A DNA stretch of 64,000 bases from a virus (Duplodnaviria; Heunggongvirae; Uroviricota; Caudoviricetes), in IMG/VR virus record IMGVR_UViG_3300018475_000095; one strand, written 5' to 3'. The notes beneath the pieces were generated by a model. The model made no database searches. It saw nothing but the letters and a program-made list of their open reading frames with translations, and had not been told where the DNA came from. Shown piece by piece: positions 17,667-61,081 of this stretch. The position numbers and the translations under genes are program-made. The number at the start of each line of letters is the position of its first letter. The stretch's first letter is position 1.

Positions 17667-17688
17667 GAAGAATTATTTAAAATTCTTC
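17667..17688 (-). terminator. intrinsic terminator hairpin after gene 17677..18231
   Basis: GAAGAATT / AATTCTTC stem followed by a U-run on the minus strand. Confidence 0.45.
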
Positions 17689-18231
17689 TTCATCAAATAT
17701 TATTTCAAAATTTTCTTTTTTATATTTTTCTTTGTCAATTATATCATCTCTTTCATCTATATAATTACCAAAATTTAGATCTCTCATTATACATATTTTA
17801 CTTGAAAAAACAACTTTTGCAAGATGATCTAAAATATATTCTTGCGCATTTTTTTCTAATAATGGTGCCATATGACAATTTATAACATCACAAAAACTTA
17901 TTATAGATCTATCATTACAATAACCTTTTTTACTATTCCAAGGCAAATCATATCTAGGTTTTTCAAAAATGCAATTTGGAAAAGTTTTGATAATTAGATC
18001 ATATAGCTTCCAATATTTAGATACTACCGAGTAACTATATAAATATGATAATATATCATAAGGCTCATCTAGTATCATATCATAATCAAAATTTTCCAAT
18101 GGAATATTTACTTCATATTCTGAAGCTAATAATTCAAACTGGGTATCTGTTTTATCCGTTTTGCAAATTGCTAAGCTATGAATAGATGAACTATTTGTTT
18201 CGAATGTATTATTTCTAATTTTTTGATTCAT
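17677..18231 (-). CDS. FETNSSS-family paralog 1
   Basis: N-terminal MNQKIRNNTFETNSSSIHSLAI is shared with three other ORFs in the window. Confidence 0.6.
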   Translation of the reverse strand: MNQKIRNNTFETNSSSIHSLAICKTDKTDTQFELLASEYEVNIPLENFDYDMILDEPYDILSYLYSYSVVSKYWKLYDLIIKTFPNCIFEKPRYDLPWNSKKGYCNDRSIISFCDVINCHMAPLLEKNAQEYILDHLAKVVFSSKICIMRDLNFGNYIDERDDIIDKEKYKKENFEIIFDEEEF

Positions 18232-18611: not shown

Positions 18612-19272
18612 TCACAGAACCCTCTTTTGTGGTATCAATATTTACATATATAGGCGTATTATAAAGATCCCAATAATTAGCATAATCTTTCCAAGCTTTA
18701 TTCAAAATATCTTCTTTATGTTTCTCTTTTAATTTAGATTCTTTTATTATTTCTTTGAAATGAGTATAAGCAATAAAATAGTTATTTTTTGCAAAATCAT
18801 CAAAACCTAATTTGTAAGCAGACATTAATAACTTTAAATTTTTTAATGTTTCTTTTCGTGCATTAATTTCTGTGTCAGTTACATTAAATGGGTCTAAGAC
18901 TTCTAACTTACCTATTTTAAATCTATCATCTTTACCGCTAATAAATTTATAATTTAAAAATTTATCTTTAATAACAAAATCTATTTCTTTATTTATTTCT
19001 TGAGCTTCTTTTGCAAGTCTTTTAAATTCATCTAATTGAGAAGTGACTGCATAACTACAATCTTGGAAAGACCAATCATTATTGCTTTTCACATAAATTT
19101 GCCCATCTTTTATATCTAAAGTATTAGGTGGTGTTAAACCTTCTTTAATTCCTCTTGCAATACTTTCTTTTAAAGAATTATTTGATTCTAATTGTTTATC
19201 CATACTGATAATTATATCAATTAATTCTTCTCTTGTACATTCTGCTAATTTCTTCATTTCCAAATCTGTCAT
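18604..19272 (-). CDS. hypothetical protein
   Basis: 222-aa ORF. Confidence 0.55.
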   Translation of the reverse strand: MTDLEMKKLAECTREELIDIIISMDKQLESNNSLKESIARGIKEGLTPPNTLDIKDGQIYVKSNNDWSFQDCSYAVTSQLDEFKRLAKEAQEINKEIDFVIKDKFLNYKFISGKDDRFKIGKLEVLDPFNVTDTEINARKETLKNLKLLMSAYKLGFDDFAKNNYFIAYTHFKEIIKESKLKEKHKEDILNKAWKDYANYWDLYNTPIYVNIDTTKEGSVNE

Positions 19273-20252
19273 TATTTTATCTCCTTACTATGATTAAATT
19301 GGTCAGCTTCATTTAACAATTTTAAATTATTAAATTTTATATCCCCAAATACTTGTCTCCACTTCCTTTCAGATTTTTCAGTTTTAATATTATACATATG
19401 CATATGATAATTTATGTAAAATACTATATCTAATGTAGTATCATATTTAGGATAATCTTCTCCTAATTGTTCTATCATATACCAAGACATATAATTACAT
19501 AATACTTTATAAGCACCAACATTGGCATGATTATAGTAATGTGCATTAGGGTCATTTTCTTTATATGTCTGCGTATCAAGTTTGCCTATATCATGTAATA
19601 ATCCTGCTTCATATAAAACATTATCTATATCATATAATTGATTAGCAACCGATTCTAAATGTTCATGTAATAATTGAGTATGATGTTTATTATGTTGGTC
19701 AAATCCAAATGCAGATTTCATCATATTATTAAAATTTTCTACAGACTCATTATGCCCTATAATATTATACAGTAATATGTTGTCCCATCCTTCTTCATAA
19801 AAAGGTACTTCAAAAGATTCTAAATATCTTCTAACCACTTCTAATGGAACTTGATGAGAATTTATATCTTCATTTCTTTTTTTAACTCTTTCTATACATA
19901 CTTCATAAGGCGTGTTTACTATGTAACAAATCTTTTTACAAGGTTCTTTTATATTTAAAAATATTTGTTTTCTAGATTTAATTGTAATATTAGTTGCATC
20001 TAGGATAACATTTAATCCTTGTTTCAAAGCTATATTTGCTTGATTATATAAGCGTCTAAAAATAAATTCATTGTTCTCATCTGGAAATTCTTTTCTTAAT
20101 TTATCACTAGATAATACAATCATGTTATATTTCAAACTCAATTCTTCTGCAATAGTTGATTTACCGGAACCTTGCAAACCACACATCACAACCAGTTTAG
20201 GTAACCTATCTTCTGCTATGTCTAATCCTATTATTTTTATATCTTTATTCAT
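19272..20252 (-). CDS. polynucleotide kinase (P-loop) fused to an HD-domain phosphohydrolase
   Basis: Walker A GLQGSGKST at the N-terminus; HD motif HEHLESV...LLHDIGK in the C-terminal half. Confidence 0.75.
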   Translation of the reverse strand: MNKDIKIIGLDIAEDRLPKLVVMCGLQGSGKSTIAEELSLKYNMIVLSSDKLRKEFPDENNEFIFRRLYNQANIALKQGLNVILDATNITIKSRKQIFLNIKEPCKKICYIVNTPYEVCIERVKKRNEDINSHQVPLEVVRRYLESFEVPFYEEGWDNILLYNIIGHNESVENFNNMMKSAFGFDQHNKHHTQLLHEHLESVANQLYDIDNVLYEAGLLHDIGKLDTQTYKENDPNAHYYNHANVGAYKVLCNYMSWYMIEQLGEDYPKYDTTLDIVFYINYHMHMYNIKTEKSERKWRQVFGDIKFNNLKLLNEADQFNHSKEIK

Positions 20253-24070: not shown

Positions 24071-25240
24071 TTAATCTTCTTTTTCTAATTTATAACCTAA
24101 TAAATTCATTTTCTTATCTTTAGATAATTCTTTCCATTCTTGCTTTATAAAATATTCTATTGGGTCTATATCTAAATATTTAAATAGAAACCCTGATAAG
24201 TCTTTATGTTCAGTTAAAATATAATTAGCTAGTTCTTTTCGTTTTTCTTTTTCATTTTCATAGAGGAAAGTATTACTTTTAAATAACATATCATCAATAG
24301 CATCATATATTTTATTTTGCATTTCTTTATATTTAGTTTCTATTTCATTAAATAAATCAGTATATTCTGGGAATAGTCCTAAAAATTCTGATTGCTCATT
24401 CTTTTCTATAATTGAAAGAATTTTTGCTCTTGAATTAACTCCATTATTTTTTAAATAATGTGCAGCTACGTATGCAGGTGATTTAATCTTAATTCTTTTC
24501 CAATATTTATCTACTACAACAAATCCTTCTTCATCATAGCCCATATATTCTACTCTATTCAAGCATTCTTTTAAATTTTGAAAAGGAAATTGTTTTGGAG
24601 TTTTAATAAATTTACTCAACTCAAGAGAATTTGGATCTAACTCTTCAAATGCGAATTTGCATCTTACGCCAATCAAGTATAAAGCATCTTTTCTATATGG
24701 AACAACTACTCTAGATTCTGGAGTTACTAATTCAAATGTATAGCAGTATAATCTATTCAAGCATTCAAACATAGAAGAATTGTTTGGAAAAGTATAATTT
24801 GAGAGAGCTCTGTCAAATAAATCTCTAAAAGATATTCCAAAGTCTCCAACAGGAGCATTACTTGCATCTAATTCACTTGAAGTAGACACCCTCCATTTAT
24901 GTAAGTAATCATCATACCACACAAGCATCTTAGATCCATCTACTTTTTCTAATACTTTTGCACTATCCCAGTCTATCTTATCAGCAAAACTTTCTTGGAC
25001 ATTAAAAAATTTATAGAAAGATAAAGCTGCTGGCTCTAAAATATTTTTGTCTATAATAAGACCTCTACATTCTCTGCATATATCTTCATTAAAATCTGAG
25101 TTTATTTGATTATATTTTAATAATACATAATTTTCATCTTCGTTTATGAATAAATTATAAGGAGCAGCTTGTAGCAACTCTCTCCAATTTTCATGACTCT
25201 TCATAAATTGAATAGTTTTAAGCATTTTCTTCCTCCTCAT
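24071..25240 (-). CDS. RNA ligase, Rnl1-like nucleotidyltransferase family
   Basis: EKVDGS is the KxDG adenylation motif in an Rnl1-like context; 389 aa. Confidence 0.65.
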   Translation of the reverse strand: MRRKKMLKTIQFMKSHENWRELLQAAPYNLFINEDENYVLLKYNQINSDFNEDICRECRGLIIDKNILEPAALSFYKFFNVQESFADKIDWDSAKVLEKVDGSKMLVWYDDYLHKWRVSTSSELDASNAPVGDFGISFRDLFDRALSNYTFPNNSSMFECLNRLYCYTFELVTPESRVVVPYRKDALYLIGVRCKFAFEELDPNSLELSKFIKTPKQFPFQNLKECLNRVEYMGYDEEGFVVVDKYWKRIKIKSPAYVAAHYLKNNGVNSRAKILSIIEKNEQSEFLGLFPEYTDLFNEIETKYKEMQNKIYDAIDDMLFKSNTFLYENEKEKRKELANYILTEHKDLSGFLFKYLDIDPIEYFIKQEWKELSKDKKMNLLGYKLEKED

Positions 25241-27946: not shown

Positions 27947-29272
27947 TTAATACATTGATATATCAGTCTTATCTTCTCTTATCCACTTGAATACAGGAAA
28001 CCTTAATCCAAAAGTACCTTGTTGATTGGCTGATATTTCAAAATATTGTATTTCAATTATTTTATTTAAAATTTTATCTGGGTTATCCCAATAATACTCT
28101 CTATCCTCATCAGTCAAACCCGAACCTACATCATTTTGATAAGTAAACCCATCAGGACCAATAAATTCAATCTTTAATGCTCCAAGTTTACCTTTATTTT
28201 TTCCTGTACCTTCTTCCATACCAACAACTTTAACATCGCAGGTTTGCATTTTCTTAACTTTAAGTAAGCCTTTGCTTCTTTTACATTCATAAGGGGCATC
28301 TGCAATATTAATCATGACACCCTCACCTCCAGCAGCTGTTATAATATCTAATTGTTCAGTAATAACCTGTTTATCATCACCATAATATAAGATAGGAACG
28401 TCAACTATATGAGGTAATTTCATAAAAGTAAATTGTTTTAATAATTGCTCTTTTCTTAAAGATGCAGGCGCATTACAATAACCATTTTGAAAATCTGTAA
28501 TTGGAATCATGTCAAAAACATTGAATATAAGATTAGTTTTTTCTTTATCTGCACTAGTAACTTTTACAGTTGCCCTATATAAATCTTTACTCTCTAAATT
28601 ATCTTTGTTATCTAACAGTAGTTCACCATCATATACATAACCCATAGGTAACTGTTTTGCTTCTTCTTCAAGTTCTATCAATTGCTCTATTAACTGACCT
28701 TGTCTGGAAAAGAATTTTGCACCTGAAAAACCATCGTTAATTAAAACACATCTGACACCATCTAACTTTGGAGTCAAAATAAATTGAATCCCTTCTGGAA
28801 CAAGTTTATCTGGATTGTCAAAATATTTTTGTGCTAACATCACGTCGAAGCAAGGTATAAAATTATCACCCCAAATTTTATTTATAGTTGTTGATTGAAT
28901 ACCCAATTTAATATCTTTAGAAACTATTTTTAATATAAGTTCAGAATAATCTTTATTAGACATAGCACATTTTAAGACTTCAATTAAAGTTGAATCTGAA
29001 CCAGTGTTATTCAACTTAACATAATTAAGTAAGTCAAATATATCATAAGTTTCTGGTATATCTTCTTTACTTATAAATGAAGATTTAATTCTATCTATTT
29101 TCTTTTTTGAGATACCTGTGACAATATAGGGGTTGAATATAAAATGAACTATTTGTTTTACATATTCATTTTCTTTATATTTATCTAACACAGCTTCTTT
29201 ATATAATCTAGAATTACTAGAGTTAATTTCATTTACAAATTCTTCAAATACTTTTAAAACCATTTTATTCAA
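27947..29272 (-). CDS. ATP-dependent DNA ligase
   Basis: TPKLDGVRC (motif I, KxDGxR), EGVMIN (motif IV) and LLKVKK (motif V). Confidence 0.85.
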   Translation of the reverse strand: MNKMVLKVFEEFVNEINSSNSRLYKEAVLDKYKENEYVKQIVHFIFNPYIVTGISKKKIDRIKSSFISKEDIPETYDIFDLLNYVKLNNTGSDSTLIEVLKCAMSNKDYSELILKIVSKDIKLGIQSTTINKIWGDNFIPCFDVMLAQKYFDNPDKLVPEGIQFILTPKLDGVRCVLINDGFSGAKFFSRQGQLIEQLIELEEEAKQLPMGYVYDGELLLDNKDNLESKDLYRATVKVTSADKEKTNLIFNVFDMIPITDFQNGYCNAPASLRKEQLLKQFTFMKLPHIVDVPILYYGDDKQVITEQLDIITAAGGEGVMINIADAPYECKRSKGLLKVKKMQTCDVKVVGMEEGTGKNKGKLGALKIEFIGPDGFTYQNDVGSGLTDEDREYYWDNPDKILNKIIEIQYFEISANQQGTFGLRFPVFKWIREDKTDISMY

Positions 29273-29999
29273 TCTCCTTTAACATATCTTGAACTTTATC
29301 TTTACCATATTTTTCTTCTAATTTACTTATTGCTTCTTCTTTAATATGAGTAATAAGTAGTTTTGCCTGTTCTTCTGTTTTTGCAGTTCTATCAGATGTT
29401 AAAGTGTCCCAATTCTCATCTCTAATGCACCAATTACATTGGAATTTATTAAAAGGATAATTAGATGTATCTACCCAATTATCAACATAAGGAGTAGCTT
29501 TTTCATTCTTATCTGAACAAGTGAGAGTCATACTTAATTGTCTTACTCTAACTTTTTTATACTCATATTTAGGTAGAGATGGTCTATAATTTTTACAAAT
29601 AGGACAATCAACAGATTCTATTCTATTACCTAAAGTGACTGCAACTTTTCCATTTTCACAATAAGGACAAGTTAGATAAGTATACCCATTTGAATATATC
29701 TTATAAACAGTATCACCAACTTTAATATCAGTGTGGAGTAATTTCTCTAACCATTTATTATGTTGTTCTTGGGCTGCTTTACTTATTTCATTATCAAAAT
29801 CTTCAAGTTTCTTTTCATACTCTTCTTTAAGTCCATTCGCAACCATCATCATAGTTTTAACTTCATCTTTATTTACATCATATTTCTTAGCATTATTTAC
29901 AATCTCATTCTTTAACATTGTTTGTAATTTTGCTGAATACTCATTAAATAAATCTTCTATCTCTGATGGTTCTCTATAATAATCTTCATAATCATACAT
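29265..29999 (-). CDS. zinc-ribbon containing hypothetical protein
   Basis: CPYCENGK...CPICKN and CNWC. Confidence 0.5.
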   Translation of the reverse strand: MYDYEDYYREPSEIEDLFNEYSAKLQTMLKNEIVNNAKKYDVNKDEVKTMMMVANGLKEEYEKKLEDFDNEISKAAQEQHNKWLEKLLHTDIKVGDTVYKIYSNGYTYLTCPYCENGKVAVTLGNRIESVDCPICKNYRPSLPKYEYKKVRVRQLSMTLTCSDKNEKATPYVDNWVDTSNYPFNKFQCNWCIRDENWDTLTSDRTAKTEEQAKLLITHIKEEAISKLEEKYGKDKVQDMLKEIE

Positions 30000-30000
30000 G

Positions 30001-30678
30001 TTACTTAATCTCCTCTACATAACACCAGCTTTGTGGGGCTTTATTTATTTGTTTATAAATACAATTTGCACCATCAAAGTCGATCCCACAAGCCCAACAA
30101 CCTTCACTTGTGTCATAATAGTTATATTTACAATCACTATTTTTATTGCAAGGATAATCATCACAATCTAAGTCTTTTTTAAATTCATTTAACGCTTTTG
30201 GTTGTTTATAAATTTTCAAATCATCTATACACCATGCGTATAAAGTTTTACCTTTACCATAATTATCTAGTTGCTCTTCAGTTAAACAAGATGCCTCTAA
30301 TTGACTTGGCATTATATCATACATTCTTTTTGGTAGCCAATCATTATAATCTCTATCAATAGTTTCAATATCATGCAATGTAAATTCTGCAACTACTTTA
30401 CCATTTAATTTTGTACCGCAACTCAAATTACCATTTACTTGCTTTCCAGTACCTTTATATAACATGAATCTTTCATCTTTAATATGATAAAAAGCATACT
30501 TAGTAGATTGAGTACAATAAATATAAACTTTACAAGGCAGATTGCATTTTGGGATTGATTTTCTGATTTCAAGAATTTTCTTACCGGTAAATATTTTCTC
30601 AACCCATTCAGGTTTAATACTAATTAAAATAGATCTCATTTTCTCTCCTCCTATCCAAAATAAACCCAAAATTTCCAA
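30001..30678 (-). CDS. ASCH/PUA-like domain protein with Cys-rich C-terminus
   Basis: SIKPEWVEKIFTGKKILEIRK resembles the ASCH N-terminal strand. Confidence 0.5.
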   Translation of the reverse strand: MEILGLFWIGGEKMRSILISIKPEWVEKIFTGKKILEIRKSIPKCNLPCKVYIYCTQSTKYAFYHIKDERFMLYKGTGKQVNGNLSCGTKLNGKVVAEFTLHDIETIDRDYNDWLPKRMYDIMPSQLEASCLTEEQLDNYGKGKTLYAWCIDDLKIYKQPKALNEFKKDLDCDDYPCNKNSDCKYNYYDTSEGCWACGIDFDGANCIYKQINKAPQSWCYVEEIK

Positions 30679-31115
30679 ACTTGAATATTTAGTTTTTGTT
30701 CTTTTAATTCTTTTATTTTGTTATTGTTATCTATAAACACTTCTATTTGTGCTTTAACAAGCTCATTGCTATTAATTTCTGGGTATACTACCAATAGCGT
30801 TTGTATGTCTTCACCTTGTAAACTATCAAATATGTTTAATTCGTGCTCAAGATATTTCTCTACTGTAGCTGTGATAGTTGTTTCGATATTTGTATTCTCC
30901 TCAGTGTACATTTGTATTTTATCATCAATAATACTACTTTCTGATATAGTTATCCCACCTACTATAAGTGTTACAAAAGCACCAAGCGATAAAAGAATGC
31001 CTAAAATAATACCTATATAACTATATGGATTTTCATCTCCATAATCTGTTAGTTTATATACTAACAAACCTGATATAAGTATACCTACAGAAATTAAAAA
31101 TAAAACTATTAACAT
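30651..31115 (-). CDS. membrane protein
   Basis: Two TM helices. Confidence 0.5.
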   Translation of the reverse strand: MLIVLFLISVGILISGLLVYKLTDYGDENPYSYIGIILGILLSLGAFVTLIVGGITISESSIIDDKIQMYTEENTNIETTITATVEKYLEHELNIFDSLQGEDIQTLLVVYPEINSNELVKAQIEVFIDNNNKIKELKEQKLNIQVWKFWVYFG

Positions 31116-31129
31116 AATATCATATCTCC

Positions 31130-32299
31130 TTAATTATTTATTTCAATTATATATCTAATAGTACATTGATTACTATTATATACAATATATTCATCGTTTC
31201 TTAAATCAGCACCACCTCTAGCAAATACTGAATTACATTTTTGTGATTTAACTTGATCTTCAGTAATCCTGCCCATCCAAGATTTATAACTTTCATTATC
31301 TAAAATTCGCCATTCTTGACCTGTAGCAAATTCAAATATAGTTAGATAAGCTTTATTACTTGAGCCAGATGCCCAATAACTACCTCTTAATGATGTATAA
31401 CCAATGCTTTTTCTTGCTTTATTAGCTGCATATATACCATTACCAAACATCGAACCTGTTAAGACAACACCCTTAGGTCTAATTTTTAACCCTGTTTGCA
31501 TAATGCTTAGATAATTCTCATTTCTACTTCCATGATATAAAAGTCTTGTTTTAAGATTATCTGGATTAAATACTTTCTCAGTTTCATGATTTGTAACTCT
31601 AAATATTTTTTGATTATTAACTCTAAAATCAGTATTGGCAGCTATAAATTCTCTTTCTTCTTGCGTTGCTAATCTACAATCAAACCCAAGTGTTTCTAAT
31701 GTTATATCTTCAATTTTATTAGATTGGGTATTCAAATTAACTTGTGATTTAAGTGTGTTGAGTTTATTTTGTTCTTCTTGTAATAATTCTATAAATTCTT
31801 GTTTAGTGTAATTAGGTTTTAAGAAAAAAGCTCTTGTATCATACATTTTTCTTGGTATAGTTGTATACACCTTTTGAAGATAGTTATTTATAATATTATA
31901 AGGTAATTTTGTTAAATCCAAGTCATTCAACTCGTCTAATATTTCTTGGACTTTATTTATTTGAATATCTGAAATTGAGTCCAGTGATACTTCATAATTT
32001 GATTTGATAGACTGTTTTGCACAACTCATAAGAAATGAAATTAAATCTTTAACATCTTTATCATCTATCTTTAAAGAAGCTTTTTTAATGTCTTGAGATA
32101 AAGATTCACTTATATCAACATACCCTTTCTTTATTTTTTCATTGTATTTTTTATCCCATTGAGACATAGAGTAAGAAGTTTTTACACTTGTAGCTCCAAC
32201 TCTTCCATATTCAACTTCGAAAGTACCGTCACCGAGATCTGTCATATTGTAAAACTTATTATTATTGTTAGGTGTAACACATATTAACTTTTTATTCAT
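31130..32299 (-). CDS. PARP-like ADP-ribosyltransferase (N-terminal WGR domain plus PARP catalytic domain)
   Basis: LLYHGSRNEN...GSMFGNGIYAANKARKS matches the PARP H-G-S/Y-[FY]/E signature region. N-terminal FEVEYGRVG resembles the WGR motif. Confidence 0.8.
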   Translation of the reverse strand: MNKKLICVTPNNNNKFYNMTDLGDGTFEVEYGRVGATSVKTSYSMSQWDKKYNEKIKKGYVDISESLSQDIKKASLKIDDKDVKDLISFLMSCAKQSIKSNYEVSLDSISDIQINKVQEILDELNDLDLTKLPYNIINNYLQKVYTTIPRKMYDTRAFFLKPNYTKQEFIELLQEEQNKLNTLKSQVNLNTQSNKIEDITLETLGFDCRLATQEEREFIAANTDFRVNNQKIFRVTNHETEKVFNPDNLKTRLLYHGSRNENYLSIMQTGLKIRPKGVVLTGSMFGNGIYAANKARKSIGYTSLRGSYWASGSSNKAYLTIFEFATGQEWRILDNESYKSWMGRITEDQVKSQKCNSVFARGGADLRNDEYIVYNSNQCTIRYIIEINN

Positions 32300-32454
32300 T
32301 ATACAATCTCCCTGTAATATAAAATATTATTTTCAAATGTGATATTTGCTAAACCTTTGTTTATCTTATCTTTATATAAAATATACAGAAAAGTAGAACA
32401 TATATTAAGTTCTAATTCATTATTTATATTATAAGATTCTTTTACTACTACCAT
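32299..32454 (-). CDS. small ORF (51 aa) translationally coupled to the PARP-like gene
   Basis: AAAGGAG plus 5 nt then ATG at 32454..32452; its TAA overlaps the PARP ATG (TAATG). Confidence 0.4.
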   Translation of the reverse strand: MVVVKESYNINNELELNICSTFLYILYKDKINKGLANITFENNILYYREIV

Positions 32455-32539
32455 AGCTACTCCTTTTAATTATAAATATTATATAAGATTATGATTAAAA
32501 AGTAAACTAATTTTAACAGAAAAATAAAAAAGTTGATAA

Positions 32540-33412
32540 TTAATTATCAACTTCTAAACTTATATATTTTAATATTGGTTTAAAATCATCTAGTGAATGA
32601 GTTTTAAGAATAAGTTTGATTGGTATATTTCTGCCATAAGTTAAATGCTTAAAACATTCTAATACTGATGCAAATGTTATCATAGCTGATTGATTTATAT
32701 CAACATCCTCTTCATCTTCTATTTCAATACATTTTATAAATTCATTATTATAATTATCTATCTCTTCCATAAATTCATTATAAACATCATCATTTACAAA
32801 TCTATTAATGTAATATAGACTAAATGTTTTAATATCATCAATCCAAAAATGCTTACCACTAGATATATAATCTATATTATCTAAATCAATAATACCTTTT
32901 TTAAATAATTTTTTAAACTCTTGGTATTCATCACCATCTACAATAACAGTGTACCTAGGGTCAAGGATAAATTCTCTCAAAGATATATTATTCTTTTCAA
33001 TATAATCAAATACATCTTCGCCTGTGTCATTTATACCAGCATATCCATAAGATTTTTCTGGTTTCTTTTTCCAAGGGTATTCTTCTTCACAATATAATTT
33101 TATTTTCTCCCTAGAACATCCTGTAAGCTCATAAACAAGATCTTCAACTTCTTTTAACCTTTCTTTTTCTTTTTTGAAACCTACATAATGTGCTACATAA
33201 TATCTTAGTTTATCTTTTGGACTAGATAAAACTTCAAAAGGTGTTCTTCCAAAAGAATGAGTATCACAACATCCAAATAGTTCAAAATCATTGCCATAAT
33301 AGTGCAATGATTTATCACTAACTGAGTAAGGTTTAACTTTCTTAGATATAACTAAACTATGCATTGAACTGCTATTTGTTTCAAAGGTTGAATTTCTAAT
33401 AAGTTGTTTCAT
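32540..33412 (-). CDS. FETNSSS-family paralog 3
   Basis: N-terminal MKQLIRNSTFETNSSSMHSLVI. Confidence 0.6.
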   Translation of the reverse strand: MKQLIRNSTFETNSSSMHSLVISKKVKPYSVSDKSLHYYGNDFELFGCCDTHSFGRTPFEVLSSPKDKLRYYVAHYVGFKKEKERLKEVEDLVYELTGCSREKIKLYCEEEYPWKKKPEKSYGYAGINDTGEDVFDYIEKNNISLREFILDPRYTVIVDGDEYQEFKKLFKKGIIDLDNIDYISSGKHFWIDDIKTFSLYYINRFVNDDVYNEFMEEIDNYNNEFIKCIEIEDEEDVDINQSAMITFASVLECFKHLTYGRNIPIKLILKTHSLDDFKPILKYISLEVDN

Positions 33413-33414
33413 AT

Positions 33415-33624
33415 TTAATAATCTCCTAAATTATCTAGTAATAAACGTTCTGCTCGTTTCATTAATCCAAGAATTGCATATACTTCATCCATACTATCTA
33501 TACTTTCAATTTTGTTTATAGCTTCATATAGTAGATCTGTTATTTTATTATGGTTATCCAAAGTTAAACTATGAGTAGAACTTGAGTTTGTTTCAAAAGT
33601 CTTATTTCTAATAAACTGTTTCAT
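33415..33624 (-). CDS. FETNSSS-family paralog 4 (short, 69 aa)
   Basis: N-terminal MKQFIRNKTFETNSSSTHSLTL; lies in tandem with paralog 3. Confidence 0.5.
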   Translation of the reverse strand: MKQFIRNKTFETNSSSTHSLTLDNHNKITDLLYEAINKIESIDSMDEVYAILGLMKRAERLLLDNLGDY

Positions 33625-33625
33625 A

Positions 33626-34264
33626 TTATAATATATCCTTTAAATCTTCATATTTTATTTTAACAATAATTCTATTCCCGCATCTATCTTTCAATTCAAA
33701 TTTAGGTCTTGCAACAAGTCCTTCAATCAAGTGCCCATTCTTTGCTATAGCACTTCTTCTTTCTGTTTTAACATAGTTGATCCCTCTACTTAATGGACCT
33801 TCAAATAAAATAGGTACAATATCTAATTTAAAGTAATTCGCTATATCTTCTACAGATTCTCTTGGTTGATAATTATCTCCTATTTGAACATCAAATAAAA
33901 TAAAATCTACATCATTTCTATAAGCTCCACCTGATTGAATTTTAGGTCCATATCCTTCACCATATAAGGTTACTTCCATTTCACCAAATTTTTGTTCAAA
34001 TAGTTCTTCATTAGCATTACCACCGAATAATTCATTTAGTCTATTTACTAAAAATGCAGGCATTGATGCATTATCTGTTCTTCCACCAAACGTTACTTTA
34101 TGACCATCCCAATGAACTCTAACATTAGTACCATCCACTTTTTCAGTAAATTGCCAAGTTAAATCTTTTAAAAATTCTATAGTTGGGTTTCTATATTTAT
34201 CTATAGTCTTTTTAGTTTCTTCATCTCTTGCATAAATTGCTTCAATTTTATTATATTTTCTCAT
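33626..34264 (-). CDS. minimal nucleotidyltransferase-type ligase (Rnl2-like)
   Basis: EKVDGTNVRV (KxDG), EGLVARP (motif IV-like) and KIKYEDL (motif V-like). Confidence 0.6.
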   Translation of the reverse strand: MRKYNKIEAIYARDEETKKTIDKYRNPTIEFLKDLTWQFTEKVDGTNVRVHWDGHKVTFGGRTDNASMPAFLVNRLNELFGGNANEELFEQKFGEMEVTLYGEGYGPKIQSGGAYRNDVDFILFDVQIGDNYQPRESVEDIANYFKLDIVPILFEGPLSRGINYVKTERRSAIAKNGHLIEGLVARPKFELKDRCGNRIIVKIKYEDLKDIL

Positions 34265-34821: not shown

Positions 34822-35232
34822 TTATTTTAAAGCATCCATAGCTTCATTTGCTAATTTATCTGCCCTGTTATTAAATTCATTATCTGAGTGTCCTTTTACT
34901 TTTATGAATCTAATATCTTTAAATTTATTTATATATGTATACAGTTCTTCCCATAAATCTAAATTAGCTTTTTTATTCCAATTTAAATTAATTGTACTAA
35001 CTACATATTGGCTATCTGAATATACTTCAATAGGAATATCATATACTTTTAATGCTTTTAACCCTTCTATCACAGATAAAATTTCCATTTTATTATTAGT
35101 TGTATTTCGAAAAGCATTTTTTAGTTCTTTATATTGATCTTGGTACTGAAGCACTATCCCATAACCACCTATGTTTTCTGCAAATTGATTTCCTCTACAA
35201 GCACCATCAGCATATATCTTAATTTTCTCCAT
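34822..35232 (-). CDS. rnhA: ribonuclease HI
   Basis: YADGACRGN, MEILSVIEGL, SDSQYV and KGHSDNEFNNRADKLA match RNase H catalytic blocks. Confidence 0.85.
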   Translation of the reverse strand: MEKIKIYADGACRGNQFAENIGGYGIVLQYQDQYKELKNAFRNTTNNKMEILSVIEGLKALKVYDIPIEVYSDSQYVVSTINLNWNKKANLDLWEELYTYINKFKDIRFIKVKGHSDNEFNNRADKLANEAMDALK

Positions 35233-36490
35233 TTAAGTATCTCCTTGTAATTTCAGATAAAGTTTCTATTGTGTTTAGTTGGGAATTCTCCATAACTTTG
35301 CCTAATAAGAAATTAAGAACCTTACCTATCTTCTCACCACTTATATCAAATGTAGATTGAAGAAAGTGCCCATCTATTGCCAAGTCTTGTAATCTATATG
35401 GTTGACTTGTAATTTCTGACAAATCTATTCCTTCTATTTTTGTGTAAATACCCAAATACTTGCATACGTATGCATGTTCAAATTTATTGAATAGTTGCTT
35501 GATTGTTAGGACAATATCTTGTTGCTGAACATCTTCCATAAACTTTGACATCTTATAATAGCTAATAACCTCTTTGATTTGTTGGTTACTATATTTATAT
35601 AACCTCATCCAAATTTCTGCATCTATCATTGACTTATACTTATTCAATATTGAATACAACTTTAACATAGGTGGGTTGTCATTATCTATATCTATGATGA
35701 CCTGGTTACTACCCCATTTACTTACTTTGTTTTGAGGTATCTCAAATATCTCTGCTAGTGTTTCTATTGTTGAATTTAAAGTTTCAGAATTACCTTTTGA
35801 ATATTCTAATATCTTCTTAACTTCTTCAGTAATTCTTTCTTTTGATACATTCTTTAAGAGACTACCAGTACCCGCTATAACATTGCTTGTTGCATTCTCT
35901 AACTCAAAATTATACTTACAAGCAAATCTAATGCCCCTTAAAATTCTCAAAGCATCTTCTTTTATTCTAACCTGTGGGTCTCCTACTGCTTTAACTATTT
36001 TATTTTTAATATCTTCAACACCATTATGTGGGTCTACTATACCTACTAATGGGTTATAAGCAATAGCATTCATAGTAAAATCTCTTCTATCTAAATCATC
36101 TATAATAGATTCACCAAAAGTTACATTATTTGGTCTTCTACCATCAGTGTAATCGCTATCATATCTAAATGTGGTTATTTCATAAATACCTGCAAGATGT
36201 TCATATTTATTTAATTTATATTTTTCTATAACTTCAATAGTCATAGTGCCATATTTTTCTCCTGTTGGAATAACTTTAAAATAAATATCCATATCACTCT
36301 TGTGAAAACTATTATCTTCAAATAGTTTCTTTGTTTCAGCAGGTAAAGCACTTGTTGCTATATCCCAATCTTTTGGTTCAATACCTAATATAGAATCTCT
36401 AATAGCGCCACCAACTGCATATGCTGCATAACCATTTTCATTTAACATGTTTATTAGTAATTCAACATATTTTGGTAATTTTATCTCCAT
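35219..36490 (-). CDS. cca: tRNA nucleotidyltransferase (CCA-adding enzyme / poly(A) polymerase family)
   Basis: YAVGGAIRD...DWDIAT is the class II head-domain motif. Confidence 0.8.
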   Translation of the reverse strand: MEIKLPKYVELLINMLNENGYAAYAVGGAIRDSILGIEPKDWDIATSALPAETKKLFEDNSFHKSDMDIYFKVIPTGEKYGTMTIEVIEKYKLNKYEHLAGIYEITTFRYDSDYTDGRRPNNVTFGESIIDDLDRRDFTMNAIAYNPLVGIVDPHNGVEDIKNKIVKAVGDPQVRIKEDALRILRGIRFACKYNFELENATSNVIAGTGSLLKNVSKERITEEVKKILEYSKGNSETLNSTIETLAEIFEIPQNKVSKWGSNQVIIDIDNDNPPMLKLYSILNKYKSMIDAEIWMRLYKYSNQQIKEVISYYKMSKFMEDVQQQDIVLTIKQLFNKFEHAYVCKYLGIYTKIEGIDLSEITSQPYRLQDLAIDGHFLQSTFDISGEKIGKVLNFLLGKVMENSQLNTIETLSEITRRYLNGEN

Positions 36491-37865: not shown

Positions 37866-38410
37866 TATTTTTCGGTACCTCTATTTTGAAATTTTTTATT
37901 ATAACCACATGGATTAAATTCTGTGCACACGCCTCCTCTATATGCACAAAGTGGAACAAGTAAATCTTTGAACTCTGGATTGACCTCAATTACTTGTCTG
38001 CAGATTTCTTTTACTACATCTCTTGTTTCAGGTGAGGCTTGGTTACATAATCTTTTATGAGCCAAGAATAATAGTTCTTGTGCATTGATGGACATAATAT
38101 GAGATACAATCGCACCTTGTGGTTTTTCTGCTCTTGGTGTTGCATCATTTGTTCTATCATCTCTTTGTGTTTGCACATAATGATTAACCCCAATATGATG
38201 TCTTACAAGATGAACTGATACATAATAAGGTATCTCCATTTTAATACCAAACCATAATTCTCTTATAGGTGAATGTTCTGCCATAAGTAATTTTACTTTC
38301 CAAGCATCCGTTGCATCTTTTGTAGATGTTTTACCTACCGTGTTGAGCGTACATTTTCGAACATATCTCCAATCTTCTTTGGTTGGATGTTTTAAAATTT
38401 CTACTTTCAT
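37865..38410 (-). CDS. divergent ThyX-like (flavin-dependent thymidylate synthase-like) protein
   Basis: EHSPIRELWFGIKMEIPYYVSVHLVRHHIGVNHYVQTQR parallels the ThyX RHR...S...R block, but reads RHH and is only 181 aa. Confidence 0.5.
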   Translation of the reverse strand: MKVEILKHPTKEDWRYVRKCTLNTVGKTSTKDATDAWKVKLLMAEHSPIRELWFGIKMEIPYYVSVHLVRHHIGVNHYVQTQRDDRTNDATPRAEKPQGAIVSHIMSINAQELLFLAHKRLCNQASPETRDVVKEICRQVIEVNPEFKDLLVPLCAYRGGVCTEFNPCGYNKKFQNRGTEK

Positions 38411-39498
38411 TATAGTATGATCTCCTCCAATGGTTCTTTGTATTTTAATACAGTATCAGTTATAACTTTACTGTTTACATCGGTGACAAATTTATTCAAT
38501 TCATCATAATTAGGTGTTTTTTGCAATGTAGAATGTCTCTCTGCTAATTGTAATCTTTTATTTAATCCATTTAAAGTATTTGTAAATTCTGCTGTTAAAT
38601 GACCATCTTTTATAAACTTACCATTTCTGATATCCAATAGAAAATCCCTATCATCTTCTCTATAAGAATTTAATACACCTTTCTCTAGTATCTCACAACA
38701 AGTTATGATTAGTCTAAATAAGTGCATGCAATGTTTATTCAATTTTTCCATAGTTGGTTTAGTATTTCTTTGATTTATTTTATTATAACTTTTTTCTATA
38801 GTTAATATATCATTTAAAGAACTTCTTACTAGGTCTATTGGTGCTTGTTTTATATTACAGTCAATATAAAGTTTATCTAAATCTGCAGTAACATTTATAC
38901 AGCCGTCTGCAAATAATTTGTTTGATTCAGATAGTTTCATCATAGCAACATCCATTGTTTGCTTTATATGTTTTACTTTTTCTTCTTCAGTATATTCAGT
39001 ACTTGCTAAAGCATTTTCAATTTTTCTTAATTGCGCTACTGCGTAACCATTAAATGTTTGATAACATTTTTTACTTAATAATAAAGGTAAACTATCAAGT
39101 AAGTCATGCCCAATTTCATTAAATATAAGATAATGTTTGAAACCTAACATTTCAATCACATTTGGGTTATTTGCCATAGCAAGTTTGATAAATTGATTAA
39201 ACTCATAAATAGTTGTGTCTGTGCTCGAATCTTCTCTTTGTTTAAAAGTTTTTAACCCAATCAATTCATCTTTAGTGGGTAGCATAACTCCTCTTATATC
39301 AATATCACTACCTTCTACATTAGTACCATATCCATGAGAACCTGATATAACTAAGAAGCATAATCTATCTTTATATTCTTCTAGCCATCTATACTCAGGT
39401 TTACTTATTATTTCTTTTATATTCAACATACATTTATCCTTTCTAATTTTATCAGCAACTAATTTGGCTAGAGTTCTTACTTCATCTATATTAGACAT
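38410..39498 (-). CDS. pol-beta superfamily minimal nucleotidyltransferase
   Basis: GSHGYGTNVEGSDIDI is the GS...DxD NTase motif. Confidence 0.65.
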   Translation of the reverse strand: MSNIDEVRTLAKLVADKIRKDKCMLNIKEIISKPEYRWLEEYKDRLCFLVISGSHGYGTNVEGSDIDIRGVMLPTKDELIGLKTFKQREDSSTDTTIYEFNQFIKLAMANNPNVIEMLGFKHYLIFNEIGHDLLDSLPLLLSKKCYQTFNGYAVAQLRKIENALASTEYTEEEKVKHIKQTMDVAMMKLSESNKLFADGCINVTADLDKLYIDCNIKQAPIDLVRSSLNDILTIEKSYNKINQRNTKPTMEKLNKHCMHLFRLIITCCEILEKGVLNSYREDDRDFLLDIRNGKFIKDGHLTAEFTNTLNGLNKRLQLAERHSTLQKTPNYDELNKFVTDVNSKVITDTVLKYKEPLEEIIL

Positions 39499-42907: not shown

Positions 42908-43360
42908 TTAATTTAATCTTATTATTCTTTGATTGCTGGAACCTCTAAATGGTAATGTAATATCTCTTTTATCTTGTTCAAATTTCCCATCCACTAAAAC
43001 GTCTATGTAATTTAATACACCAAAGTTTTTCATGTCTTCATACAAATAACCAGTATATAACCAAATAGTTTTACTAGGAAATTTTTCTTTTATCTCTTTT
43101 GTTAGAGCTACAATTTCATCTCTGTTTCCTGGATAAAATGGATCCCCACCACTAAATGTAATCCCATCTATGTAATCTCTATCTAATAATTCAAATAATT
43201 TTTGTTTGGTTTGTTCTGTAAATAGTTTACCTCGTGTCTCGTCCCAACATTCTGGATTGTGACAGCCTTTGCAGTAGTGTGAACAGCCTGTAACAAATAA
43301 AACAACTCTGACACCTTCACCATCTGCAATAGAGCAATCTAAAATTTGTTGATATCTCAT
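42908..43360 (-). CDS. nrdG: anaerobic ribonucleotide reductase activating protein
   Basis: GCSHYCKGC radical-SAM cluster and FSGGDPF. Confidence 0.85.
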   Translation of the reverse strand: MRYQQILDCSIADGEGVRVVLFVTGCSHYCKGCHNPECWDETRGKLFTEQTKQKLFELLDRDYIDGITFSGGDPFYPGNRDEIVALTKEIKEKFPSKTIWLYTGYLYEDMKNFGVLNYIDVLVDGKFEQDKRDITLPFRGSSNQRIIRLN

Positions 43361-43361: not shown

Positions 43362-43619
43362 TTATCTCACCTTAATTTTTTTCTTATTTAATATTTGTGA
43401 ATTGCTATAAACTAAATAATTTGTTAAAGGTTCGCCTTGCCAGCCAGAAAAGCCTTGATATATAATTCCATCTTTTCCAAATATTTCAAATATAGCATCA
43501 TAAGCTTCATCAGTATATTTATTTTGTACATTAAACAATATTTCACTAATAATATCATTATCACTATTGTTATATGCAAATAAAGATTCTACACAATTAT
43601 TTAAAACATTTTCATAACC
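43362..43619 (-). pseudogene. start-less in-frame continuation downstream of the ART-like gene, possibly a decayed C-terminal domain
   Basis: Eighty-five-codon open frame in phase with the upstream gene across its TAA, with no ATG. It ends 2 nt before the nrdG ATG. Confidence 0.3.
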
Positions 43620-43934
43620 TTAATCTTCATACCAACCATAGTTAGATAAATAATCTTTTCCAATAGGATCTACATATTTTCTAATATAATTTTTAACTTG
43701 ATTTTTAGCTATAGTTATACTGTCATCTCAAAATGGTTTTCTAATTAATAAATCTGCTTCTATAACATAATCACCATAACTTTTAGCTTGATTAATTTCG
43801 TCTGTAAAGTAAAAGCCAAATCCATGCCCTAATGCATGAGCTCCAATGAATTGCTGCTCAAATCTGTCGAATTCTGCATTAGATCCATGATATGCGTGGT
43901 ATAAATTATTAATCTCTTCCTTTAAAAATTTCAT
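43620..43934 (-). CDS. small H-Y-E-class ADP-ribosyltransferase-like protein with in-frame TGA (43728-43730)
   Basis: AYHGSNAEF and GHGFGFYFTDE resemble the PARP HGS and GKGIYFAD motifs. After the TGA, 35 more sense codons run to a TAA (verified). Confidence 0.45.
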
Positions 43935-44530: not shown

Positions 44531-47500
44531 TTATTCAATAGGAACTCCTGTGTGTTTGACTCTATCTTCTACTTCCGCTATCTTACCTTCATTAAAATTA
44601 TGATAATCTGTAGAAACATATCCTGTAACTCTTCTTAATCTTTCAATATTATCTGAACCACATTCTGGACATTTATCATTCATTTCTTCTTGATGTCCGC
44701 AGTCCATACAAACATCATTTGGTACGTTTATAGCAAAGTAAGGTATATCTTTATCCATAGCATAATTAACTAATTTTTCAATAGCTTCTATATTATGAAT
44801 TGAAGATGAATCTAATTCTACATAAGTAATACACCCAGCTGAAGAATAACCTGTTAATTGACTTTCAATATCTATTTTATCAAAAGCATTTATGTTATGG
44901 TATACTGGAACATGCATTGAATTAGTAAAATATTTTCTATCAGATATATTTGGAATAATACCATATTTTTCTTTAAATTTAGTCATAGCAGTTTTACATA
45001 AAGATTCTGCAGGAGTATAATAAACACCAAAATTTAATTTATATTGTTCTTTAAAATAAGCACATTTATCTTTAAATAATTGTTCTATCTTTTTAGCAAG
45101 TTCCATACCTTCTTTTGTAGTATGGTCTTTTCCAATTAATATTTGTAAACATTCAGCAAGACCTAATTGACCTATAACTAATGTTCCATGTTTTAAAGCA
45201 CTCCTAATTCCTTCTTCTGGAATATAACCAGCCATTGTGTTATTTTCATACATAAATGGGGCTGATTTAGGTGATTGGCTACAGATATGCTCAAATCTTT
45301 CTATCAAAGAGTCTTTTGCTTCATTTATTTTACATTCAAGTAATCTCATAAATACATCTATATCTGATTCTTCTGAAGCTCTTGTACATTCTTTAGATTT
45401 CATTGCTATTGTTGGTAATATAATAGTAGTAGGTGCAATATTTCCTCTACCATCTTTTTGTTGTTTTAAACCATTAATATCCCAACCATTTGCAGTTCTA
45501 CAGTTATGCATTATAATATCTGAACCTATAAATGAACCAGTTTCAGTACCTATATCGTAGCTATCAACTGCTTCCCAATGCCAACATATATCAGTTATTT
45601 CTAACTCTAAATTATCAGCTCTATAAAGTTTATCACCTATTTTTAATTGATCTGCTCTTGTAAATTTATCTCCTGTCCATAGAGGGTGATCTTCAGTACA
45701 AGACAAACAATATTCTTTATCGTATTCTTTGTAATAGATATGCATCATATACGGAGTATTTAATTTATCATTTTTAAAGATATGTTTGATCTTTACCCAT
45801 TTATTATCTCTATCTAATACTTTAATATCAAATTCAGATAAATCAATCAATTCTTGTTTTTTACTCAAATCAACTTTAAATACAGGTCTATCATATACTC
45901 TATGCCTAGATTTTTGAGTAATTAACTTATAATATTTCTTATCTGTTCCTCTAGGATTTATATTTGCATTCTTTTGAATATAAAGGTTTTCAGCTTCTTT
46001 ATAATCTTCAGTTATTTCTAATACTTTAAATTCATAATTAGCTGTATCAATATCCCCAAAATTTATTCCTGCATCAATCCCACCTGTTTTGCCTATAGCA
46101 CATTTATGCTCAGCGCATCTTCTAGAAATAGAACTTGAACTTCCAATATATGTGACATCTTCTGGTAAATAAGTTATTGAATAAACACCTGGTAGATTAG
46201 GTAATCCAGATTTTTCTTGATAATGTCTACCTAAAGGCTCTTCATTTAATTTTTCTCTGTTATACCAAATCTGTGTTTTCTTATAATTTTGTAAATCATC
46301 TGTTTTACAATAATCAAATAAGTCTCTGATAGATAAGTCAATAGGTTCTTCATTTCCTATTTTAACTGTTAGATGTTCATGACCACTCAAAGCACCCATT
46401 GTACTAAAATATGTTTTTGGATCATTTACATCGTAACCTGCATTACCACTCCAATCAACTGAGGCATAATTTGGATACAATCTCTTTGAAGTTGATTTTA
46501 ATGCTAACTTAAATAAGTCATAATTTGGATCGCCCGGTTTTCTGTTAACACCTTTCATGCACTGGAATATACCACAAGGGAATATACTTGTTCTATGATA
46601 TTTTCCTAAACCTTCAATAGATACATTTAACAATTCTTCTGTTATCATTCTACCTTCTGGTAAAGTGCAAGTTCCATAATTTATAGAGCTAAATGGTAGT
46701 TGTTGTCCACTTCTTGATTGTAATGAATTTAAATTGTGATATAATGCTTCAACTGCTTGATGTGTTTCTTTTTCAGTTTGTCTCATAGCATATTCATAAG
46801 CATCTTGATTTAGTTTATATTTTTCGTCAATTATAGAAGTTTCTTTTGTAATTCCTTCTAAATACTTTTCATTACCGAACCAATATAATCCTTCTTTATA
46901 ATGTTTATAAAAACTCTTTCTTACATAAGGGACCATTGACCAATCAAAGTGAGTATATGATACACCACCAAATTGACATAAACTTTGTAATTGCATTATA
47001 ACAGCTGACAATTGCATCGCTGTATTTACTGTTCCAGCAGGTCTTATATCTGTCTGTTTAACTTTAAATCCTTTTGCTAATAAATCATCTAAAGGAATTG
47101 ATAAACAATTATGCATACCACTTGCATAAGCATCTAAATCATGTATATAAATTTCATTATTAATATGATTATTTCTAGTAGTTTCTGATACTAAATTATT
47201 AAGTGCATATTCTTTTAATATAGTTCCAAATGCTTCTTTCTCTCTTCCACTGAAAGTATTTTCATCTAGGTTTGCATTTGAATTTTCTACATTCTTTGCT
47301 TCTAGTTTAGCTTTAACTTTATTCATTAGTTCAGTATAACTATTTCTAGCTAGTTTATGTAATTGTCTATATTCTATGTATGCTTTTGCTTGTTCATATT
47401 TATTAGCTTCCATCAAAGTTAGTTCTACAATATCTTGAATTTGTTCTACAGTATAATTTTTTCTTTTATCTAATTGTTGTGTTACTTTATTTGTTAATTC

Positions 47501-57199: not shown

Positions 57200-57330
57200 T
57201 CTCCTTTAATAATATTAAGTTAAATAGCTCTGGTAACTTAGTAGGTGCACCATTACCAAAGCTAAGTTACTTAAAATGAGTAAGTTTGGTTAAAACAGCT
57301 CAACCAGCGTGAAGGTACTTACTCATTGAG
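57200..57330 (-). ncRNA. structured element immediately 3' of the suppressor tRNA
   Basis: Two perfect stems: ATGAGTAAGT/ACTTACTCAT (57276-85 with 57317-26) and GTAACTTAG/CTAAGTTAC (57233-41 with 57262-70), the latter enclosing the GGTGCACC palindrome. Confidence 0.35.
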
Positions 57331-57331
57331 C

Positions 57332-61078: not shown

Positions 61079-61081
61079 ACG

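Follow-up and report, generated by a model that had tools for sequence, protein, structure and literature searches.

A predicted PARP1/2/3-type ADP-ribosyltransferase encoded in a ligase-containing gene block of an uncultured ~154-kb phage

The IMG/VR virus record IMGVR_UViG_3300018475_000095, a member of the Caudoviricetes, includes a stretch of 64,000 nucleotides (nt), here called the window, in which a gene at 31130..32299 on the minus strand encodes a member of the PARP (poly(ADP-ribose) polymerase) family. The predicted product has 389 amino acids (aa) and is composed of a WGR domain, a helical domain (HD) and an ADP-ribosyltransferase (ART) catalytic domain. Pfam, PHROG and PDB sequence searches, an AlphaFold model and a Foldseek comparison identify it as a PARP1/2/3-type ADP-ribosyltransferase with a complete H-Y-E triad. 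The source of the gene is an uncultured phage of ~154 kb. We propose, with moderate confidence and by analogy with characterised PARPs, that this three-domain enzyme would be a break-activated ADP-ribosyl writer acting in maintenance or protection of the phage genome. Directly upstream is an open reading frame (ORF) of 51 aa, which the original prediction had taken to be a partner of the PARP and which we consider separately below.

The original prediction had proposed a WGR-like N-terminus and a PARP catalytic signature on the strength of short motifs, and both proposals are borne out. The 389-aa ORF contains FEVEYGRVG, LLYHGSRNEN, GSMFGNGIYAANKARKS and NDEYIVY. The Pfam PARP catalytic domain (PF00644) matches residues 225–388 with E = 3.8e-24 and 85.7 bits, the cutoff being 26.7 bits. 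The Pfam WGR model reaches 21.2 bits in this protein, just below its cutoff of 22. For a family set of 36 relatives with 48–98% identity to the window PARP, the PARP model is matched in 36/36, WGR in 35/36 (best E = 2.7e-8) and the regulatory domain model PARP_reg in 8/36 (best E = 8.7e-5). PHROG 23333, which is annotated as "polymerase", matches the protein end to end with E = 7e-51. The top PDB sequence matches found with phmmer are PARP2, PARP1 and PARP3, including catalytic and WGR-catalytic chains of PARP2 and PARP1.

The three domains can be placed on the sequence as follows. The WGR domain occupies residues ~1–65 (32105..32299, minus strand) and contains the motifs NNNNKFY and YGRVG. 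With a profile of the first 78 residues, the isolated WGR domain of PARP3 is hit at E = 9e-4 (2eoc) and that of PARP2 weakly, at E = 0.013 (6f5b). Residues N12, N14, K15, Y17, G32, R33 and G35 of this domain are invariant in the family alignment. The helical domain, the probable counterpart of the PARP regulatory domain, extends over residues ~78–200 (31700..32068, minus strand), and the AlphaFold model has helices at residues 81–101, 111–126, 134–147 and 166–192. The phmmer alignments to PARP1 cover residues 80–303 of the query, that is, they run through the helical domain. The ART catalytic domain, residues ~205–389, is encoded by 31133..31687 on the minus strand. Its triad histidine, H256, is specified by 31534..31532 and its catalytic glutamate, E370, by 31192..31190; these two residues and Y290, K297 and Y301 are invariant in 36 sequences. 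The spacing from Y290 is seven residues to K297 and 11 to Y301, which matches the spacing of Y896, K903 and Y907 in human PARP1. The catalytic blocks align with the HGS, GIYFA and NEYIVY blocks of PARP2, with NDEYIVY in the phage protein facing YNEYIVY in PARP2.

The AlphaFold model of the PARP has a predicted local distance difference test score (pLDDT) of 84 and a predicted template modelling score (pTM) of 0.77. It consists of a β-rich N-terminal domain, a helical bundle from residue 81 to 192 and an ART domain. The best Foldseek matches are WGR-HD-catalytic chains of PARP2 and PARP1 on DNA double-strand breaks (6x0l, 7s6m and 4dqy), with E values of 1e-19 to 1e-17, and the match to the catalytic domains of PARP1, PARP2, PARP3 and PARP4 has a Foldseek probability of 1.00. 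The original prediction was to be abandoned if no PARP fold was supported or the catalytic glutamate was missing; the fold is matched and E370 is present, and so the identification stands. A comparison of the gene with that of a relative with an 84%-identical PARP (locus L016) gives a ratio of non-synonymous to synonymous substitution rates (dN/dS) of 0.09.

The PARP gene is part of a co-directional block on the minus strand in which no gap is larger than about 15 nt from position 32454 to the stop of a ligase gene. The order of genes is the 51-aa ORF, the PARP, a 154-aa membrane protein, an ASCH protein, a 244-aa Cys-motif protein and an ATP-dependent DNA ligase. The gene for the 154-aa protein (orf154, 30651..31115) starts 14 nt past the PARP stop; the product has two predicted N-terminal membrane helices and no family match in Pfam or PADLOC, and it is unrelated to the small protein that is conserved beside PARPs in other lineages (see below). 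The ASCH-domain protein (30001..30678), with a Cys-rich C-terminus, is a weak match to Pfam ASCH (E = 1.7e-3) and probably starts at the ATG at 30638. Its gene is the second downstream of the PARP, and its first ~60 residues fit a candidate defence model of PADLOC, PDC-M11B (E = 3e-13). The 244-aa protein (orf244, 29265..29999) is Zn-ribbon-like, with CxxC...CxxC motifs, and has no significant matches. The last gene of the block, at 27947..29272, encodes the ligase, in which Pfam recognises DNA_ligase_A_M and OB_2; it is 40% identical to the ligases of Geobacillus and Bacillus phages.

A DNA ligase gene lies 0.2–2.2 kb downstream of the PARP gene in all six independent relatives examined, whose PARPs are 62–100% identical to that of the window (loci L001/L002, L003, L016, L017, L019/L020 and L101, from a clade of ~150-kb phages). 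A similar arrangement is found in Cellulophaga phage phi4:1, which has a Bacteroidota host: a CCA-adding enzyme (tRNA nucleotidyltransferase), a PARP with 30% identity, one ORF and a DNA ligase, in this order. We also scanned a distant set of 10 IMG/VR phage loci with 37–41% PARP identity. Three of the 10 (L004, L005 and L006) have a PF09414 RNA ligase within 4 kb of the PARP, another (L007) has an ATP-dependent DNA ligase, and another (L015) has a CCA-adding enzyme. The Pfam scan of these loci also found a second protein with an ATP-dependent DNA ligase domain, one RtcB and, from NAD metabolism, two NAPRTases and one NUDIX hydrolase.

The distribution of the family depends on where one looks. 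The original prediction had called bacterial and phage PARPs rare, which is true of cultured phages, as only 16 of 50,697 records contain one. It does not hold for a large protein collection, where 4,951 PARP matches were found at E ≤ 1e-3; the best 120 of these are all at least 48% identical to the window PARP and come mostly from phage-sized contigs. Nor does it hold for bacteria: a scan of one genome per species, which covered genomes and metagenome-assembled genomes (MAGs), yielded 75 PARP loci with 26–54% identity over the best aligned segment. Most of these loci are on chromosomes of Spirosomataceae, other Cytophagales and Saprospiraceae, and some are in assemblies of Lachnospiraceae, Clostridium and Treponema. 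This set agrees with "clade 1" as defined by Garcia-Saura et al. (PMC5966428), also in having YGR as a variant of the WGR motif.

The bacterial PARP genes have companions of their own. In about two dozen loci, a ~145-aa macro-like protein is encoded directly upstream of the PARP, and many of these have a second copy downstream. This macro-like partner matches pPIWI_RE_Z in Bacteroidota, and Macro plus the DarG model in Clostridia. Directly downstream of the PARP in 42 loci is a gene for a conserved protein of ~90 aa (TTTLEVK..LR..GY.A.Q.DVS...NG.FR.Y), a family with zero Pfam or PDB matches; it also occurs in phages, at L006, L007 and L015 and as gp030 of Cellulophaga phage phi4:1. WYL/WCX regulators occur in up to nine of the 19 bacterial loci examined. 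For reference, cassette members lie in bacterial loci L026–L100 (for example, L067:4298-4786 and L067:6148-6450) and in phage loci at L006:8611-9057, L007:2202-2666, L015:3411-3953 and L022:8163-8624. Neither the macro-like partner nor the ~90-aa protein was found in the window by hidden Markov model (HMM) searches that covered every ORF of 40 aa or more and by hhalign, which included the 51-aa ORF and orf154. Nor was a WYL regulator detected there. Likewise, Pfam found no Macro, PARG, ADP_ribosyl_GH/ARH or NADAR match among the genes checked in the 64-kb window. It follows that, within these 64 kb, the phage carries the writer alone.

The WGR domains of PARP1–3 bind DNA breaks and relieve the autoinhibition by the helical domain. 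We suggest that the phage enzyme would work in a similar manner, as follows. If PARP1–3 and the enzymes of Herpetosiphon and Clostridioides are a guide, a nucleic-acid break, such as a 5′-phosphorylated nick or end, would be bound by the WGR domain. Binding would loosen the helical domain and open the NAD+ site, and ADP-ribose, singly or in chains, would then be moved onto the enzyme itself, nearby proteins or the phosphorylated end. The PARP would be expressed from the gap-free co-directional block together with the co-translated 51-aa protein, in a region rich in genes for DNA and RNA end repair, and the enzyme may act in early or middle infection at the expense of host NAD+. We infer the break activation, the substrates, the timing and the biological role. 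Work on the bacterial enzymes is relevant here: HaPARP of Herpetosiphon is DNA-dependent (PMC8120803, PMC4245714) and CdPARP of Clostridioides is highly active in vitro (PMC5966428).

Several observations weigh against the proposed break-activated writer. Pfam does not call PARP_reg (PF02877) in the window PARP, and calls it in just the eight relatives mentioned above. The two residues preceding the catalytic glutamate are N368 and D369, versus Y-N in PARP1 and PARP2, and for this reason chain elongation should not be assumed for the window PARP. One 154,387-nt contig of the Joint Genome Institute (JGI), from the same population, has the PARP as two pieces of 53 and 299 aa (P0143 and P0144), and the break falls at an A-rich run, AAT GAA AAA ATA AAG AAA. 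The split suggests either a frameshift variant, hence a dispensable gene, or a homopolymer assembly error. The ligase linkage is missing in Xanthomonas phage XacN1 and in Klebsiella phages. It is also missing in a Mu-like phage (L103), whose 51%-identical PARP gene is located between Gam, Lar and methyltransferase genes and Mor. Where the linkage exists, it may be no more than a sign that large phages generally cluster their genes for replication and nucleotide metabolism. Finally, the literature searched yielded no functional study of any phage PARP. As for the Mu-like locus, a 22.6-kb contig (JGI 3300042615) with the PARP in an early accessory region, the presence of a PARP in a transposable phage means that the family extends beyond large phages.

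Some of the same observations would be accommodated by a host-takeover or anti-defence effector. The PARP would then ADP-ribosylate proteins of the host, for instance its RNA polymerase, its translation factors, its nucleases or proteins of defence systems, much like T4 Alt, ModA and ModB or AcrIF11, and its position among repair genes would be incidental. A takeover role has been proposed for phage PARPs in comparative-genomics reviews (PMC7824862, PMC9503650), and it would suit the Mu-like homologue in the company of Gam, the restriction-alleviation gene Lar and a methyltransferase, the Klebsiella and Xanthomonas phages without a ligase near the PARP, and the apparent dispensability of the PARP in one population variant. 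What makes us regard a takeover role as unlikely, although it is the best placed of the rivals, is the architecture of the protein: the WGR and helical domains, which in PARP1–3 serve break sensing and autoinhibition, are strictly conserved and would be needless for a simple protein-targeting toxin. In addition, the ligase and RNA-ligase surroundings recur in distant lineages, and PADLOC, with its models of known defence and anti-defence systems, gave zero matches for the PARP, the 51-aa ORF and orf154.

A second rival holds that the substrate would be the nucleic-acid end. In this case, the enzyme would cap 5′- or 3′-phosphates at DNA nicks and ends or on broken tRNA and other RNA, and the cap would block host exonucleases and phosphatases or prime the end for the co-encoded ligases. 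In vitro, PARP1–3 attach ADP-ribose to phosphorylated DNA ends, which then withstand phosphatase; a 5′-phosphate modified by PARP3 has been suggested as a possible ligase substrate, and ADP-ribosylated DNA is a known substrate of DarG (all PMC8385414). The recurrence of DNA ligase, RNA ligase, RtcB and CCA-adding enzyme genes beside phage PARPs, and the likeness of the bacterial macrodomain partner to DarG, would agree with end-capping. Against it, the argument is one from gene context, no eraser that would make the cap reversible is among the window genes checked, and prokaryotic PARPs are not known to act on ends. We hold end-capping as such to be unlikely, and less probable than a takeover role. 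It is tempting to go further and to imagine an ancient virus-encoded "PARP–ligase" axis. Its WGR domain would sense 5′-phosphorylated nicks and ends of phage DNA or broken RNA, and the terminal phosphate or the enzyme itself would be ADP-ribosylated, either shielding the end against exonucleases of the host or handing it to the co-transcribed ligase. This axis would be writer-only, with the 51-aa protein tuning the activity in one sub-clade. We offer it as speculation, improbable as it stands, though slightly less so than end-capping.

The 51-aa gene lies at 32299..32454 on the minus strand. As the original prediction had it, the ORF is preceded by a strong ribosome-binding site, a Shine-Dalgarno sequence AAAGGAG at 32460..32466 (minus strand), 5 nt before the ATG at 32454, and its stop overlaps the start of the PARP gene. 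The TAA (32301..32299) has one base in common with the PARP ATG (32299..32297), giving TAATG. The PARP has a Shine-Dalgarno sequence of its own, AGGGAG, at 32308..32313 (minus strand), within the 3′ end of the small ORF and 8 nt ahead of the PARP start codon at 32299. The 85-nt gap that precedes the small ORF contains a sigma-70-like promoter candidate, TTTACT-17 nt-TATAAT (32478..32506, minus strand), which has 10 of 12 matches and is the best site of the region; in DNA as rich in AT as this (28% G+C) the scan predicts too many sites, 41 where 25.5 are expected. Relatives without the small ORF have a similar promoter-like gap immediately before the PARP gene.

Judged from its pattern of substitutions and its modelled fold, the 51-aa ORF is a real gene. 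It differs from its counterpart in L016 by 14 synonymous and 11 non-synonymous changes (dN/dS of 0.12). AlphaFold, in a prediction built on three sequences, gives a confident and compact β-α-β-β fold with a pLDDT of 96. In L016, the ORF overlaps the PARP gene by 4 nt (ATGA). The gene is lineage-restricted: among 5.8 billion proteins, its homologues amount to two clusters, with 88% and 80% identity, and the pair with PARP is kept only in L016 and clusters P0121 and P0122. It was not found beside PARPs of 75%, 68% and 62% identity (among L003, L017 and L101). In L019/L020, with a PARP of 71% identity, a 54-aa ORF without detectable similarity to it lies upstream of the PARP gene. An equivalence of the 51-aa and 54-aa ORFs, which are 32% identical in a MAFFT alignment, was rejected because BLASTP yields no alignment. 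We also rejected a derivation of the 51-aa ORF or orf154 by decay from the ~90-aa PARP-associated protein, the hhalign probability being at most 0.1%. The 51-aa ORF has no similarity to macro domains.

The 51-aa protein is therefore at most a small protein specific to a sub-lineage and co-expressed with the PARP, an accessory and not a defining partner. Since it occurs only beside the closest relatives of the PARP, a conserved role as regulator or antitoxin is unsupported. The original prediction had envisaged a two-gene toxin or anti-defence module in which the small protein is the regulator; the comparison does not support this, as the pair is not conserved across relatives. The partners that are conserved with the PARP elsewhere are the macro-like, ~90-aa and WYL proteins in bacteria and polynucleotide ligases or the CCA-adding enzyme in phages. 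A toxin–regulator or toxin–antitoxin-like module, in which the 51-aa protein would control or neutralise the PARP, might still be read from the stop/start overlaps and the shared promoter-like gap, from the purifying selection and confident fold of the small ORF, and from the bacterial homologues, whose pairing with a macro-like, DarG-like gene and WYL regulators is reminiscent of toxin–antitoxin or regulated stress modules. It is the least probable reading and a very unlikely one, given that an obligate antitoxin is expected to co-vary with its toxin and this one is absent or replaced beside PARPs of 62–75% identity, that it resembles neither the conserved PARP-associated small protein nor macro domains, and that the PARP has its own Shine-Dalgarno sequence.

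The phage itself is known from metagenomes. An identical PARP protein is recorded in 43 collection blocks, most of them with contigs of 50–200 kb, and the longest contig is ~154 kb. The region of the window that was checked is identical to JGI contig Ga0257090_10000440. A nucleotide search of 30000..34000 against the 50,697 phage records gave zero matches, and it follows that this phage has no close cultured relative among them. The G+C content of the window is 26–31% over most of its length, and every long ORF is on one strand. An array of 15 tRNA genes at 60705..63555 has a G+C content of up to 36%. The DNA ligase and a Ro60-like protein of the window are ~40% identical to their counterparts in large Bacillus and Geobacillus phages.

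The host would be a low-G+C member of the Bacillota, and an anaerobic one because the window encodes NrdD and NrdG. NrdD, the anaerobic ribonucleotide reductase (44531..47626, minus strand), has 1031 aa and a GIY-YIG domain inserted at residues ~480–555, presumably an insertion of the homing-endonuclease or intein type. The NrdG activase is encoded at 42908..43360. A 489-aa protein (13271..14740, minus strand) has an N-terminal Cu/Zn superoxide dismutase domain (E = 1.4e-31), which is unusual in a phage whose host is an anaerobe; its long C-terminal part is without annotation. A 750-aa ORF (5125..7377, minus strand) is split into genes of 512 and 158 aa in another ~154-kb contig of the same phage (L021:13966-16218), which suggests strain polymorphism or assembly differences.

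The window also encodes an RNA-repair toolkit, with genes at 19272..20252, 24071..25240, 33626..34264, 35219..36490, 38410..39498 and 57746..59251, all on the minus strand. Its members are a polynucleotide-kinase-like AAA_33+HD protein, an Rnl1-like ligase, an Rnl2-like ligase, a CCA-adding enzyme, an RlaP nucleotidyltransferase and a Ro60/TROVE-like protein. The last of these, at 57746..59251, has DUF2828 and DUF7788. RNase H and Thy1 are encoded in the PARP region as well. The gene upstream of the block formed by the small ORF and the PARP, orf290, belongs to a multi-copy family with the N-terminal motif N.TFETNSSS.HS, found at 32540..33412, 33415..33624 and 17677..18231 (minus strand) and at L017:4251-4730; in L017 a 159-aa copy is directly upstream of the PARP. 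The family has zero Pfam, PHROG, PADLOC or PDB matches, and PDB sequence searches with orf290 and orf244 gave nothing significant.

The original prediction included a second small ART-like gene at 43620..43934. These coordinates run through a TGA and end at an in-frame TAA, and what lies there is part of a disrupted ART-PolyVal gene of 191 codons (43362..43934, minus strand), with a match to PF18760 at E = 4.9e-11 over residues 14–181. The in-frame stops are the TGA at 43730..43728 (codon 69) and the TAA at 43622..43620 (codon 105). PF18760 scores 36.6 bits on the N-terminal piece of 68 aa and 44 bits on the whole conceptual product of 190 aa, the cutoff being 31.2. Eight intact homologues of 184–194 aa, with 58–90% identity and from related contigs, were aligned. 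At the TGA position, seven of the eight have Ser and one has Cys. Residues at the TAA position vary; three of the eight, among them the two closest, have Glu. TCA to TGA and GAA to TAA would each be a single-base change, as judged from the homologues' residues and not their codons. Stop-codon reassignment was considered and rejected: the two stops differ, long ORFs are intact elsewhere and the homologues are intact. Stop usage in the window is ordinary (56 TAA, 12 TAG and 6 TGA). The gene has probably suffered two nonsense substitutions, either as a recently inactivated gene or as an assembly variant.

Just downstream of the Ro60/TROVE-like gene is a 97-nt tRNA-like gene with the anticodon UCA, which reads UGA (57330..57426, minus strand). 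ARAGORN calls it tRNA-SeC and the Rfam tRNA model matches with 38 bits; the acceptor stem measures 8 bp and the variable arm is long. Candidate identities are a tRNA-Sec of the phage, a suppressor of UGA and the tRNA-like part of a Y RNA. We note the coincidence that this UCA tRNA is present in the window and that Ser occupies the TGA position in seven of the eight ART-PolyVal homologues.

Phage PARPs have been on record since 2014, when those of Cellulophaga phi4:1 and Aeromonas Aeh1 were listed (Perina et al. 2014, PMC4245714). The PARPs of jumbo phages were discussed by Iyer et al. 2021 (PMC7824862), and there is a virome-wide survey (PMC9503650). The GenBank record of Klebsiella phage vB_KpM_FBKp34 already annotates WGR, regulatory and catalytic domains. 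Phage and bacterial PARPs with the architecture of the window protein are thus already catalogued, and ours is a solid annotation and not a discovery. What is added is the comparative picture, namely a ligase and RNA-repair context in phages versus a macro, small-protein and WYL cassette in bacteria, and a small ORF that is not conserved. PARP1/2/3-type enzymes are central to DNA-break signalling in eukaryotes, and the window locus adds a conserved, intact phage member from a large metagenomic family of ~150-kb phages. That several unrelated lineages of phages have PARP beside polynucleotide ligases and the CCA-adding enzyme, at times also beside NAD-salvage genes, offers a testable lead. Should the linkage to ligases be functional, the coupling of break-sensing ADP-ribosylation to ligation would not be a eukaryotic invention; if it is not, the PARP is one more accessory phage ADP-ribosyltransferase.

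Among known systems, the bacterial clade 1 PARPs of Cytophagales and Clostridiales (PMC5966428), as well as CdPARP and HaPARP, resemble the phage PARP in length, in the combination of WGR and PARP_cat and in the H-Y-E triad. Pfam often misses the helical middle domain of bacterial PARPs, to which the modelled helices of the phage protein probably correspond, and most of these PARPs have YGR in place of WGR. Chromosomal relatives in Spirosoma, Larkinella, Flexithrix and Lachnospiraceae are 34–42% identical, and MAG contigs reach 49%. The chromosomal genes are found in the macro-like/~90-aa/WYL cassette; the phage gene is instead in a ligase and RNA-repair block. The two biochemically characterised enzymes, CdPARP and HaPARP, belong to clade 2, a different clade from the relatives of the phage PARP.

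Four annotated phage proteins, gp031 of Cellulophaga phi4:1, ORF414 of Xanthomonas XacN1, and those of Klebsiella 05F01 and vB_KpM_FBKp34, are also full-length WGR-HD-PARP proteins, with ~99% query coverage, and are from large lytic phages. However, they are only 24–34% identical to the window PARP and their hosts are Bacteroidota or Proteobacteria, in contrast to the Bacillota-like phage described here. The phi4:1 locus has in common with the window the surroundings of CCA-adding enzyme, PARP and DNA ligase, and differs in having a small protein, gp030, downstream that was not found in the window. The 51-aa ORF is in none of the four loci. T4 Alt, ModA and ModB and the ART-PolyVal proteins are, like the window PARP by fold and sequence, phage-encoded NAD+-dependent ARTs. 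In contrast to it, T4 Alt, ModA and ModB are placed in the R-S-E clade (PMC9503650), lack WGR and helical domains and are mono-ARTs whose targets are host proteins or RNA.

The closest counterparts in sequence and fold are human PARP2 and PARP3. The phage protein lacks their N-terminal extension, has a shorter WGR domain, is 18–22% identical to them in fold alignments and has N-D for Y-N. Nevertheless, the order of the three domains is identical, and the phage and human proteins have in common the motifs NNNK[FY]Y, [WY]GRVG, HGS and GIY, the Lys and Tyr of the donor site, and EYIVY.

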